A stretch of 64,000 nucleotides of DNA from positions 1 to 64,000 of the forward strand of contig JBBDRK010000069.1 in NCBI GenBank assembly GCA_040905465.1, read 5' to 3'. Shown here piece by piece: positions 60,527 through 64,000 of the stretch; within the stretch, counting starts at the first letter, position 1, and each line of letters opens with the position of its first letter. Source of the DNA: Trueperaceae bacterium. Lineage in GTDB: Bacteria > Deinococcota > Deinococci > Deinococcales > Trueperaceae. Under the pieces are notes generated by a model. That model was not told the DNA's origin, ran no database searches, and saw nothing but the letters and a program-made list of their open reading frames with translations. The position numbers and the translations under genes were made by a program.

Positions 60527-62083
60527 TCAGCGGACCGGCCGGCGCAGCCCCTTCGGGTAGTGGTTCTTGATGATGTCACGGCTGCTCCGGCCCCATCCGA
60601 GCGGGAAGCCGGCAACGGTGACGAGCACCCAGCCGTCTTCGCCCGGCCGTTCGAGCTCCGCTCCGAGGAGATAAGCGTCGAGGCCGGCTTCGCCGGGCTG
60701 CAGGATCACGCTCCGCAGCGCATCTTCGCGCCGCAACGCCAGTGCCAACGAGTGCGACGGGGCGAAGCGCTCCCGGGATACCGAGCCCAGCCACAACCCG
60801 GGTCGCAGGACTCGCACGCCGGCCAGGTCGGGAGCCCCGGGCGGCACCGCGTAGAGGCCGTCGCGCTGAACGATGAGCGCGTGGTCCGGAAACGGATCTT
60901 CGGTCAGGTTGTCGCTGATGAACCCGCGCCAAAGCTCCTTCGCCTGACGCGACTCGGCCGAATCGCCGGCAGACTCGCCGGCAGACTTCCCGGCGGAGCC
61001 GCCGGCTGTCGCTCCGCTCCGGCCCTGCCCGTAGTTTCGCCGCCCCTCGTTCCTCCCGATTCGGGTCGACACCGGTCCCGTGTCCCCGGTTCTGTCGGCA
61101 GGCTCCGGGGGCGACTCGTGCCCTCTCCTCAGCAGCACCAGGAAGTGGCCTTCTCCGGCGTGCCGGTGGGGCCATATCCGCACGGCGCGACGCAACTCGG
61201 TTGCCCGTTCGCCACCGGCCCACTCGGGACGGCCGGAAGCGACTCCTGCCAAGCCGGTCTCGATCGCCTCCCAGTCCGGGCGCTCCGCCAGGAACCGCCC
61301 GATCACCTCCTCGTTCTCGGCCGGTTCCAGCGTGCAGGTGCTGTAGGCAAGCCGTCCACCCGGCCGTACCAGCCGCGCTGCCTCGGCCAGGAGAGCGTCC
61401 TGCCGGATAACGCATGACTTCACTATCTGCGGGCTCCAATGAGCGATCGCTTCGGGAGTCTTGCGGAACATGCCCTCTCCGGAGCACGGGGCGTCCAGAA
61501 GCACCGCGTCGAAGCGAGCCGACCACAGGTCGGCCAAGGTCCTCGGATCCGCGCTGGTCACCAGCGCTCGGCGCGCTCCCCAGCGCTCGAGATTCCTGCT
61601 CAGCTCACGGGCCCGGCCGCCATGGACGTCGTTCGCAACCAGTAGCCCACTGTCGCCGAGCAGCGCCGCAAGGTGCGTACTCTTGCCTCCAGGCGCGGCC
61701 GCGAGGTCGAGGACGCGTTCGCCGGCACGTGGCGCCAGTGCCTCGGCGACCGCCATGGCCGAGGGCTCCTGCAGGTAGTAGAGTCCCGCGGCGTGAAAGG
61801 GATGCCGGCCCGGGCTTCCGTCGAACTCCAGAACGAAGCCGGCTGGACACCACGGCACGGCTTCGAGCGACCACGAAGGCGGTCGCGTCGATCGAGACGG
61901 TGGCGATCGAGGCTGTGGCGGTACTGCCTGCGACAGGAGGCGCTCGAACGCGGCCGCCGAGAGCTTGAGGGTATTGACCCGCAGGCCTGTTACGGGAGGC
62001 TCCTGCAGGCTGAGCTCCAGCCGGTCGGCCTCCGGGCCGAGGAGCCGGCGCATGCGCGCTCGAAACTCGGAGGGCAGGTTCAG
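60527..62083 (-). CDS. rsmF: 16S rRNA m5C methyltransferase RsmF (RsmB/NOP2 family)
   Basis: YYLQEPSAM, DLAAAPGGKS, LDAPCSGEG, YSTCT, KNHYPKGLR; start probably CTG at 62083 (first ATG at 62053). Confidence 0.92.
   Translation of the reverse strand: MNLPSEFRARMRRLLGPEADRLELSLQEPPVTGLRVNTLKLSAAAFERLLSQAVPPQPRSPPSRSTRPPSWSLEAVPWCPAGFVLEFDGSPGRHPFHAAGLYYLQEPSAMAVAEALAPRAGERVLDLAAAPGGKSTHLAALLGDSGLLVANDVHGGRARELSRNLERWGARRALVTSADPRTLADLWSARFDAVLLDAPCSGEGMFRKTPEAIAHWSPQIVKSCVIRQDALLAEAARLVRPGGRLAYSTCTLEPAENEEVIGRFLAERPDWEAIETGLAGVASGRPEWAGGERATELRRAVRIWPHRHAGEGHFLVLLRRGHESPPEPADRTGDTGPVSTRIGRNEGRRNYGQGRSGATAGGSAGKSAGESAGDSAESRQAKELWRGFISDNLTEDPFPDHALIVQRDGLYAVPPGAPDLAGVRVLRPGLWLGSVSRERFAPSHSLALALRREDALRSVILQPGEAGLDAYLLGAELERPGEDGWVLVTVAGFPLGWGRSSRDIIKNHYPKGLRRPVR
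60955..61011 (-). repeat. 12-bp in-frame tandem repeat within an rsmF insertion
   Basis: Encodes AGGS-AGKS-AGES-AGDS-AES. Confidence 0.75.
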
Positions 62084-62631
62084 TCGTCGCCTCCACCGTC
62101 GAGTTCCGGGCCGCCTTCCTCGTCACCTTGCGTGCGGCTCGCTGCGCCCCTGCGATCGGCGCTACGCGCTTCGTTGGCCCGCAAGGCGGCTAGCTCGCCG
62201 AGCTGGCGGATCTCCTCGATGAACCGGTCTACCGAATCGAAGTCCCGGTAGACGCTCAGGAAGCGGATATAGGCGACGTCGTCGAGGCCCTTCAGGAATT
62301 TCAGGGTACGCAGGCCGACCTCCTCGGAGGCGATCTCCGGTGCCTGGATCTCGTCCTCGAATCCGTAGGCGAACTCACGCAACTGCTTCTCGGTCACCGG
62401 TCTCTTGTTGCAGGCGATGCGCAGCTTGTCGAGCAGCTTGTCGGGATTGAACGCCTCGCGACGGCCCGAGCGCTTGCTCACCATCAGTGCTTCGAACTGA
62501 GCTCGCTCATAGGTCGTGAAACGGCGGTGACAGTTGGCGCAATCGCGGCGACGGCGAATCGAGGTGCCTTCGTCGGACGGCCGTGAGTTGATCACTCGGG
62601 TGTCGTTCGATGTGCAGTAGGGGCATTTCAT
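62080..62631 (-). CDS. nrdR: Transcriptional repressor NrdR (in frame with upstream SDR-like ORF)
   Basis: MKCPYC, RRRRDC..C.RRFTTYE, ATP-cone, DDVAYIRF. Confidence 0.95.
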   Translation of the reverse strand: MKCPYCTSNDTRVINSRPSDEGTSIRRRRDCANCHRRFTTYERAQFEALMVSKRSGRREAFNPDKLLDKLRIACNKRPVTEKQLREFAYGFEDEIQAPEIASEEVGLRTLKFLKGLDDVAYIRFLSVYRDFDSVDRFIEEIRQLGELAALRANEARSADRRGAASRTQGDEEGGPELDGGGDD

Positions 62632-63489
62632 GGTAGCGCCATCGCCGAGCTGCCGGGCGCAGCCCGGCAGCTCTCTGGGGAATGCCACCTCGTCGGCGAA
62701 CTCTCGCTCGCCGTCGTCGCCGTCGTTGCCGTTGTCGAAGGAATCCTCGTTGCCGTCGTCGTAGAGGCTCGCCTCGAGGTCGTCCTGGCGCACGCTCGAG
62801 TCGAGCGCGGCCTGGACCTCCGGGAGGAGCGACTCCACGACCTTCGGCGGCGGAGGCAGCTCGACGTAAAGCTGCTGCCCACGTACCCCTTGCGCGGTTG
62901 CCGAGCCCAGGTACAGCACGCTGTCGATGAGAGCGGCATCGTGTCGAGGATCGGACGCCTGCCGCGACGGAACCACCATGTTCGCTCTCAACCGCTCGTA
63001 ACGATCTCCGAACCCGGCCACCATCCCGGACAGCGCTCCGCGTACCGCGGTCATCTGCGGCTCGTCGGCGCTCTCGGGCGGGGCGACCAGCACCAGCCAG
63101 CCCTCCCGCAGCACCTGGGCACAGACCTTTAGCGTCAGGTAGCTGCTCTTGATGTCCTCATCGAGCAACTCCACGAACTCGCTCTCCCCGAGAGCATGGA
63201 ACGGCGTGTGACTCCCGTAGGCTGCCACGTGAATCACGCCGTTGAGATCACCGAAGATCTCGTAGACCTTGTGAAAGGCGTTCAGGACGTCCATGTGGGT
63301 GGTCATGTCGGCCTGGATGGGGATGGCCTGGCCCCCGAGCTCCTCGATCTCCGCCGCCGTCTTGGATGCGAGATCGACGTCACGATCGGCGCACACAACG
63401 TCATGCCCACCATGGCCGCAGGCAAGGGCGACAGCCCGGCCGAAGCCCTGTCCGACATTAGTCACGAGCACCACGCTGGCTGTACCCAT
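62632..63489 (-). CDS. Atypical SDR-like domain with no stop codon before nrdR
   Basis: Rossmann TNVGQGFG, ADMT; YxxxK absent; acidic linker runs into NrdR. Confidence 0.75.
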
Positions 63490-63623
63490 AAGAGGTAGGA
63501 TACAGCCCATTCAGACGCGGCCACAAGGGATGCCGCGACCCACTGTGAATACCTTTATGGACGGCCCACCGCCCTGATCGGCTAGAACTGGACGGGGTGG
63601 GAGCGGCAACTGGAGGGCGTTGA

Positions 63624-64000
63624 GTGTTTTCTAGGCGAACCAGAGGACGGCGCGGCAGCGGCGAACCGTTTACCTACATCCAGGAGGGAACCGTGCTTCG
63701 CGGCGATCTCGAGGCAGCCGGCAGGGTCCGGATTCACGGGACCGTGCTGGGCAACGTCACGGTAGCCGGAGTTCTCGAGGTGGCCGCCGAAGGTATGGTG
63801 AAGGGCGATCGTGTCGAGGCCGATCAGGTGCGGATACTCGGTGCCGTCGAGGCGATGGTGTGCGCGGCCGGCAAGGTCGAGATCTGGCGCGGCGGCCAAC
63901 TGACCGGAGACGTAAGGGCGGCATCGCTCGACATCGAAGAGGGCGCGAGCTTCACCGGCCGGAGCGAGATGCGCCCACCCGGGTCTCCACCTGCCCTGCC
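63624..64000 (+). CDS. Bactofilin (polymer-forming cytoskeletal protein), partial
   Basis: GTG at 63624 after GGAGG: MFSRR..TYIQEGTVLRGDL..RIHGTVLGNV..GDVRAASLDIEEGASFTG; absent from the ORF track, runs off the window. Confidence 0.88.
   Translation, partial: MFSRRTRGRRGSGEPFTYIQEGTVLRGDLEAAGRVRIHGTVLGNVTVAGVLEVAAEGMVKGDRVEADQVRILGAVEAMVCAAGKVEIWRGGQLTGDVRAASLDIEEGASFTGRSEMRPPGSPPAL

Follow-up and report, generated by a model that had tools for sequence, protein, structure and literature searches.

We analysed a window of 64,000 nt from a Trueperaceae bacterium of the Deinococcota (assembly GCA_040905465.1, contig JBBDRK010000069.1, positions 1 to 64,000), in which a minus-strand open reading frame (ORF) joins an SDR-type protein (SDR, short-chain dehydrogenase/reductase) to NrdR, the near-universal bacterial repressor of ribonucleotide reductase (RNR). 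The ORF listing holds a minus-strand open frame at 62080..63510, corresponding to 476 amino acids (aa) from an upstream ATG, and translation from the ATG at 63489 gives 469 aa. Since the proteins of relatives begin at the MGTASV position, in one case with a GTG start, 63489 is the likely start. The fused frame of 469 codons accordingly spans 62083..63489 and is closed by a TGA stop at 62080-62082. In reading order, it comprises an SDR-like core (residues 1-245, 62755..63489), recognized by Pfam, an alignment to the PDB, an AlphaFold2 model and Foldseek; an acidic tail of the SDR-like protein (residues 246-276, 62662..62754) with the end VAFPRELPG; codon 277 (62659..62661), which reads TGC (Cys) where congeners have a TGA; a former intergenic spacer of 27 nt (62632..62658), read here as residues 278-286 (ARQLGDGAT); and nrdR itself (residues 287-469, 62083..62631), assigned by Pfam and NCBIfam. 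All of these features lie on the minus strand. Codon 277 is at the same time the loop (3 nt) between the 12-nt arms of a perfect inverted repeat (62647..62673, a feature without strand). Based on the comparisons described below, we consider it highly probable (roughly 0.85) that the locus represents a conserved two-gene module of a catalytically dead SDR and nrdR, and that only in this assembly does a single base link its two members.

The architecture proposed by a first-pass annotation of the window, namely a 469-aa ORF with an SDR domain, an acidic linker and a complete NrdR, was borne out by the frame itself and by the Pfam and NCBIfam matches. In the N-terminal half, adh_short (PF00106) matched residues 6-127 with 61.3 bits (cut-off 26.6), covering profile positions 2-123 of 195, and adh_short_C2 matched residues 14-174, whereas all NCBIfam models of SDR enzymes scored far under their cut-offs (at most 60.7 bits vs 215-639). 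The AlphaFold2 model of the SDR core reached a predicted local distance difference test (pLDDT) value of 88.4 and a predicted template-modelling (pTM) score of 0.81, and Foldseek superposed it on classical SDRs with TM-scores of 0.69-0.75 at 18-24% identity. A kept Gly-rich loop together with a missing YxxxK motif had likewise been noted before, and both observations hold: the loop reads TNVGQGFG (residues 10-17, 63439-63462 on the minus strand), and in a HMMER alignment to PDB entry 5thq the Tyr of YxxxK is replaced by Met146 and the Lys by Arg150. In the same alignment, the position of the catalytic Ser, 13 residues upstream of the Tyr, falls in Pro137-Pro138 and, by count, on Pro138. The first-pass annotation had also pointed to NmrA-type non-catalytic SDRs as NAD(P) sensors; the SDR half does not belong to the NmrA-like family (PF05368), which was absent from the 7 Pfam families matched at E<=1.

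These replacements are shared by the whole group of relatives. The residues Ser, Tyr and Lys are missing from all 40 aligned SDR-like proteins, and across the 40 aligned genomes a Pro-Pro pair occupies the Ser position and [Q/H]-x-x-x-x-[R/Q] the YxxxK position. On the other hand, G15, G17, R18, D35 (which sits after strand 2 of the SDR-like fold), D61 and H87 are invariant or nearly so in the same proteins; H87, S115, R176 and D184 are invariant; and the loop, TNVGQGFG here, has the canonical form TGxxxGxG in the other four families. Judged by these positions, the SDR-like protein is predicted to be catalytically dead yet to keep its dinucleotide-binding site. Named members of this SDR-like family are annotated only as generic SDR. 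The acidic tail is found in 24/24 genomes of the Trueperaceae family (f1) within the first set of relatives, where it extends 8-203 residues beyond position 245, and is absent in 16/16 genomes of the other four families. Within one family (loci L013-L024 and L062-L105) its length ranges from 8 to more than 200 residues, resulting in SDR proteins of 251-471 aa, and its last residues, of the form ...F/Y-P-x-E-L-P, look like the ...ELP end of Thermaceae proteins. One genome harbours a second SDR-like copy with 59% identity (G044:C59:2068-2868).

The C-terminal half is a complete NrdR. The equivalog TIGR00244 matched residues 287-430 with 153.5 bits (cut-off 124.65), Zn_ribbon_NrdR (PF22811) residues 287-328 with 72 bits and ATP-cone (PF03477) residues 336-418 with 52.1 bits, which places the Zn ribbon at 62506-62631 and the ATP-cone at 62236-62484 of the minus strand. 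The zinc-ribbon residues C3, C6, C31 and C34 are invariant across 40 NrdR sequences, and 7p37 was the best solved relative of this half (E 4e-35). In this assembly NrdR forms the C-terminal 183 residues of the 469-aa frame, while it stands alone in 83/83 relatives; a second nrdR was not found in the genome. The C-terminal extension (62083-62193, minus strand) belongs to a charged extension (30-55 aa in this genus) of the NrdR proteins of this genus and of G014, which have a total length of 179-206 aa compared with about 150 aa in most relatives. With regard to the internal nrdR ATG (62631), the first-pass annotation had reported neither a Shine-Dalgarno sequence nor a TANNNT element, and we can confirm this for the preceding 22 nt: they contain no GGAGG-like stretch, and the sole TANNNT within them overlaps the ATG itself.

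Next, we compared the gene order in relatives. In a six-frame search of a first set of 40 relatives (5 families, 30 genera), nrdR was immediately preceded by an SDR-like gene in the same orientation in 39/40; the remaining genome (G018) matched neither half. At 39/39 junctions of this set and at 44/44 additional family junctions, the latter being chosen for an SDR frame long enough to hide a fusion, the SDR frame is closed by a stop that precedes the nrdR start or overlaps with it. Among these 83 junctions, 30 have a 4- or 1-nt overlap, and the others are spaced by 2-29 nt (31), 30-100 nt (15) or more than 100 nt (7). A family-wide search gave a match at E<=1e-60 in 122/128 genomes (a tally that includes the unpublished genome G111). 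A stop-free match across both halves was obtained for this genome only among the 128 family genomes; seven others span both halves with one or two internal stops, and for 54 further matched genomes the lack of a stop-free spanning match in this search is the sole basis of the assignment. In addition, a scan of species representatives with eight Thermaceae queries identified 57 loci from Thermus, Meiothermus, Calidithermus, Oceanithermus and metagenome-assembled genomes, some of them in genomes counted already. Here, nrdR lies downstream with an intervening stop in 57/57 and the two genes share a 4-nt overlap in 23/57. By comparison, none of 22 generic SDR loci from other phyla returned by the same scan (24-35% identity) had an NrdR within 900 nt; one further locus was cut by a contig end. 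In two genomes of the family-wide search, the SDR-like and NrdR matches are located on different contigs (G108, C296:26347-27135 and C53:11712-12209; G066, C294 and C421), which may reflect contig breaks or true exceptions to adjacency.

The first-pass annotation had envisaged a fusion coupling cofactor status to RNR repression, and had named two separate genes in all relatives as an outcome that would refute it. The relatives do have two separate genes, at every one of the 83 junctions and 57 Thermaceae-type loci, and a conserved fusion is therefore refuted. More generally, the ORF of this window is the only observation in favour of an evolved fused family of NAD(P)(H)-sensing RNR repressors. 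We regard such a family as extremely improbable, given that 1/128 family genomes is stop-free, that every junction read directly has a stop, and that three large protein searches yielded no two-domain protein. Among 5.8 billion proteins, restricted to lengths of 257-821 aa, the best 120 matches to the whole ORF were SDR-only and covered 50-60% of it. A query with the NrdR part over the same lengths returned 13 proteins, none with an SDR domain and nearly all of them single-member clusters. Similarly, the best 150 matches of a HMMER search over 1.84 billion representatives included no protein spanning both halves (top score 321 bits, SDR only). Five of the listed matches, four of them two-stretch, were inspected: in P0154, P0168, P0173 and P0223 either the NrdR zinc ribbon or the entire NrdR is duplicated, P0245 is an NrdR with long flanks, and an SDR part is absent from all five. 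The tail motif preceding codon 277 marks the end of all 11 nearest proteins (80-88% identity), with the endings ELPG (six proteins), EMPR (two), ELPH, ELPS and PGEAP. A metagenome scan with back-translated VAFPRELPG gave 13 loci, all of which were chance matches in unrelated context.

The trees of both genes recover the family clades and place this genome sister to two congeners (support 99/90 and 99/87); the stop change therefore maps to the terminal branch of this genome. Taken together, the comparisons indicate that the fusion is a singleton on a terminal branch and not an evolved architecture. The patristic distances of the two trees are correlated (r 0.66 overall, 0.35 within the family), but we rejected this as a sign of co-evolution, as it reflects shared descent.

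At the DNA level, the two congeners (G001 and G002) and G014 read ...CCG GGC TGA at the end of the SDR gene and this assembly reads ...CCG GGC TGC, so that base 62659 decides between a stop and an open frame. The spacer before the nrdR ATG measures 27 nt here and keeps the frame, which the spacers of G001 (28 nt) and G002 (13 nt) do not; the last ~15 nt of the spacer here are recognisably homologous to G001. The inverted repeat around codon 277 is a strong hairpin: a 111-nt stretch folds at -47.1 kcal/mol (z -2.55), and one of 63 nt at -38.2 kcal/mol (z -3.3). An A in place of the C in the loop would lengthen the repeat to 13 + 1 + 13, as read from the sequence. The repeat occurs once in the genome and hence does not belong to a repeat family. 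A strong hairpin at the SDR stop is also seen at locus L012 (G021:C1, junction near 351850-351940), with a sequence unlike the palindrome described here.

Given this alignment, the TGA of relatives could in principle encode selenocysteine or undergo programmed read-through, with Cys as its counterpart here, in which case relatives would be fused as well. The match of TGC to the congener TGA and the presence of a hairpin would fit such a scenario. However, nrdR lies in another frame in the congeners, with their 28- and 13-nt spacers, and in frame in 10/39 relatives, which is no more than chance; moreover, many relatives use TAA or TAG stops, and the hairpin is unconserved, with a z below -3 at 2/40 junctions (-3.3 in this genome and -3.0 in G021). 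We give almost no weight to read-through and rejected it on the reading frames of the relatives.

As a next step, we looked into the sequence support for base 62659, which was judged from assembled contigs of sequencing runs, not from raw reads; holes in such contigs prove nothing. The best-holding run, from which the assembly probably stems, contains 95% of the sampled words. One of its contigs (depth 41) matches 62000-62649 and then continues with 8 letters differing from the window, and a second contig (depth 42) begins at 62671; both end exactly 3 nt inside the hairpin stem, one per side. Only a contig of 203 nt, with a depth of 3 and 4 mismatches, covers the 21 nt between them (62650-62670), including 62659, and the junction is uncovered in the three other runs. 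Since a break within a given 21-nt stretch is unlikely by chance, we tie it to the hairpin. With respect to the linker, for which the first-pass annotation had proposed a check of read support, the independent contigs do not confirm codon 277. Across the GAC/GAT-rich part coding for the tail (62702-62755), all four runs show contig depth raised at least twofold, which is due to low-complexity cross-matching from other organisms and not to copy number.

Two explanations of the TGC have to be weighed at this point. The first is a base-call or assembly error, or a minor allele, at the strong hairpin, to which we assign a little better than even odds. According to Nakamura et al. (PMC3141275), Illumina reads accumulate miscalls at inverted repeats and GGC motifs, which act as triggers and lead to false single-nucleotide polymorphisms and hindered assembly; of the A/T-to-G/C conversions, T>G and A>C occur more often. 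An error at 62659 would need a T>G on the plus strand, directly after CCGGGC. Several points count against an error: a contig of more than 64 kb reads through the site without a break; what follows the hairpin shows homology with the last part of the congeners' spacer and is therefore not a fold-back artefact; and consensus assemblers usually out-vote strand-specific miscalls.

The second explanation, already raised by the first-pass annotation as a recent loss of the SDR stop, is that the change is real and fixed in the population, giving an SDR-NrdR fusion of about 51 kDa, possibly together with free NrdR from the internal ATG, and thereby a natural Rosetta-stone protein. The TGA to TGC change and the stop-free, in-frame spacer of 27 nt agree with this view, and sequencing error remains the further option for the same observations. 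The gene is also the sole nrdR of the genome; ESM Atlas holds an identical 469-aa sequence, though this perhaps comes from the same assembly; and the presumed translational coupling of the two genes in relatives would mean that a fusion changes stoichiometry little. Nevertheless, we place a real stop loss somewhat below even odds, with sequencing error as a roughly equal rival: 62650-62670 lacks independent support, a perfect GC-rich hairpin, which is a known error context, has this codon in its loop, and 0/83 relatives and 0/57 Thermaceae loci are fused. That none of the 83 lost the stop, despite a dS of about 1 between congeners, further suggests that selection keeps it. The remaining odds go to the inner 21 nt being wrong in some other way. 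Either way, the fusion is confined to this assembly, and the separate, adjacent genes of the relatives remain the conserved state.

We then turned to the RNR context and to the surroundings of the gene pair. The RNR large-subunit domain (PF02867) was not found in this 95%-complete assembly. Both congeners have an RNR (G001:C29:15889-19899 and G002:C24:94432-98448), with a frame of 1762-1821 aa in which PF02867 is matched in separated pieces; this could reflect an intein-bearing RNR that assembles or bins poorly. In 3/4 relatives examined, box pairs 31-32 nt apart, which is the canonical spacing, are located upstream of the RNR gene, a pattern drawn by eye from these same sequences. The pairs resemble TACAA-N4-TTGTA, precede the RNR start by 110-200 nt in G001, G002 and G005 (L045 1156-1200, L046 1225-1270 and L047 1112-1156), and are probably the local NrdR boxes; the RNR gene of G024 has no clear box pair upstream. 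In two NrdR studies, known NrdR sites are described as two 16-bp boxes with a spacer of 15-16 bp (PMC13584703; PMC12051234). The box pattern of the relatives' RNR leaders gave no pair in the 64-kb window. A 16-nt NrdR-box consensus had 2 matches in the genome vs 2 in the control, and upstream of the SDR gene at 40 loci its best matches were no better than those in shuffles (mean of 7.4 vs 7.0 mismatches). Scans for sigma-70 promoters and for intrinsic terminators gave 0 matches each, Rfam returned a single chance microRNA match below threshold, and among the listed sequencing runs that contain the stretch there was no RNA run. A TATCCT hexamer of the TANNNT type, resembling a -10 element, stands 7 nt before the SDR ATG (63497..63502, minus strand) and may mark a leaderless start of the SDR gene. 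On the other side of the pair, a gene for an RsmF-type ribosomal RNA methyltransferase (60527..62053, minus strand) starts 26 nt after the nrdR stop, and the upstream neighbour of the SDR gene is a divergently transcribed bactofilin gene (63624-63998, plus strand).

In our opinion, the lead worth following is the conserved pairing of a dead SDR with NrdR, above the fusion itself. The head-to-tail layout of SDR gene and nrdR across the order, very often with an overlapping stop and start (ATGA or GTGA), would imply co-transcription and coupled translation. The dead SDR could then act as a non-catalytic, nucleotide-binding partner or modulator of NrdR that is made in matched amounts, and a real fusion would be tolerated because the two proteins are produced in matched amounts anyway. 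In pairwise comparisons of this genome and its three nearest relatives, the ratio of non-synonymous to synonymous substitution (dN/dS) was 0.03-0.15 in the SDR core and 0.04-0.13 in NrdR, at a dS close to 1, which places both genes under similar purifying selection. The idea underlying the first-pass annotation, a functional tie between a non-catalytic SDR and NrdR, gains indirect support from the often overlapping gene pair seen throughout the order, and a role of the SDR-like protein as a partner or sensor for NrdR is plausible.

Several considerations nevertheless weigh against a partnership. Genes can be kept side by side in an operon without any interaction of their products. For the identical 469-aa sequence, the ESM Atlas model reaches a pLDDT of 0.66 and a pTM of 0.46, the latter meaning that the two halves are not confidently docked there. 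Moreover, no NrdR box was found upstream of the SDR gene with the pattern from the relatives' RNR leaders, so that autoregulation is unsupported. The adjacency might hence be operonic only, with the SDR-like protein having a job unrelated to NrdR or being a non-canonical enzyme that shares the promoter. Besides the missing box, the four invariant residues H87, S115, R176 and D184 would be in line with this, as they could form another active site, and no physical link to NrdR is known for conserved nrdR neighbours of other phyla, ribD among them. We consider a purely operonic association to fall only just short of even odds, since the pairing extends across five families with stop/start overlaps at 30/83 and 23/57 junctions, is specific to this SDR family as judged from the 0/22 control loci, and involves two genes under similar purifying selection.

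A stronger form of the partner role would apply to the whole of the Deinococcota, a group known for surviving oxidative and radiation damage. Here, the dead SDR, binding NAD(P)(H), would be an obligate accessory subunit of NrdR, made together with it by coupled translation, and would tie RNR repression to the redox or cofactor state; the acidic tail in Trueperaceae would be DNA-like, and the fused frame would represent a natural Rosetta stone. We hold this to be unlikely. More generally, a pseudo-enzyme that is translationally coupled to nrdR throughout the phylum would add a second input to the control of deoxynucleoside triphosphates, which could come from the redox or cofactor state or simply be a chaperone or anti-repressor function. 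Current work treats NrdR as a target for antibacterials and as a model for nucleotide-sensing oligomerisation. A term search of two NrdR papers (PMC9110341 and PMC12051234), within their available text, gave no mention of a protein partner of NrdR, nor did the matches listed by the full-text searches described below. As to the fusion, if real it amounts to the stop loss of one lineage; if false, it illustrates how a spurious fusion gene can arise from a GC-rich hairpin in a metagenome-assembled genome.

Full-text searches of the literature outside subscription journals that combined NrdR with short-chain dehydrogenase, Deinococcus or Thermus yielded no mention of an SDR partner of NrdR. The matches for NrdR with short-chain dehydrogenase, as far as their text was available, were mostly unrelated mammalian NRDR or passing mentions, apart from a table on Thermus, and those for NrdR with Deinococcus were irrelevant as judged by title. 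In the available text of PMC9110341 and PMC12051234, term searches likewise found neither Deinococcus nor a dehydrogenase nor a fused NrdR.

In comparison with known systems, the C-terminal half shares the CxxC...CxxC Zn ribbon and the ATP-cone with described NrdR proteins (TIGR00244; 7p37, 9fzf and 9fxk among other solved structures). However, NrdR is known as a stand-alone protein of about 150 aa, whereas 286 residues precede it in frame here, and, unlike the described NrdR, it always follows a dead-SDR gene across the order. A close described arrangement is that of Thermus thermophilus HB8, where an SDR gene (TTHA0133) is likewise followed by nrdR (TTHA0134), with TTHA0133 being compared by its tabulated description. 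In the table concerned (PMC7662524), the two are listed as the first and second gene of a postulated operon, for which the paper proposes no function, and among the full texts searched TTHA0133 is named in this one only. The Thermus loci of our species-representative scan show the SDR-nrdR pair with a 4-nt overlap. The Thermus pair differs from the locus described here in consisting of two genes and in having an SDR without the acidic tail.

Classical SDRs, for example the 3-oxoacyl-acyl carrier protein reductase 5thq, resemble the N-terminal half in the Rossmann fold, the Gly-rich loop, the acidic residue after strand 2 and an RxN..PSR segment. They differ in their intact Ser/Tyr/Lys, in place of which Pro138, Met146 and Arg150 are found here. 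Conceptually, the candidate partner resembles NmrA, and with it further Rossmann-type regulators such as Rex and MAT2B, in that an SDR-like or Rossmann protein devoid of catalysis controls a transcription factor or an enzyme through binding. In filamentous fungi, NmrA regulates AreA (PMC5122588). The SDR-like protein of the Deinococcota would follow the same concept, but it has no NmrA Pfam match, its presumed target is a repressor with a Zn ribbon and an ATP-cone, and the setting is bacterial.

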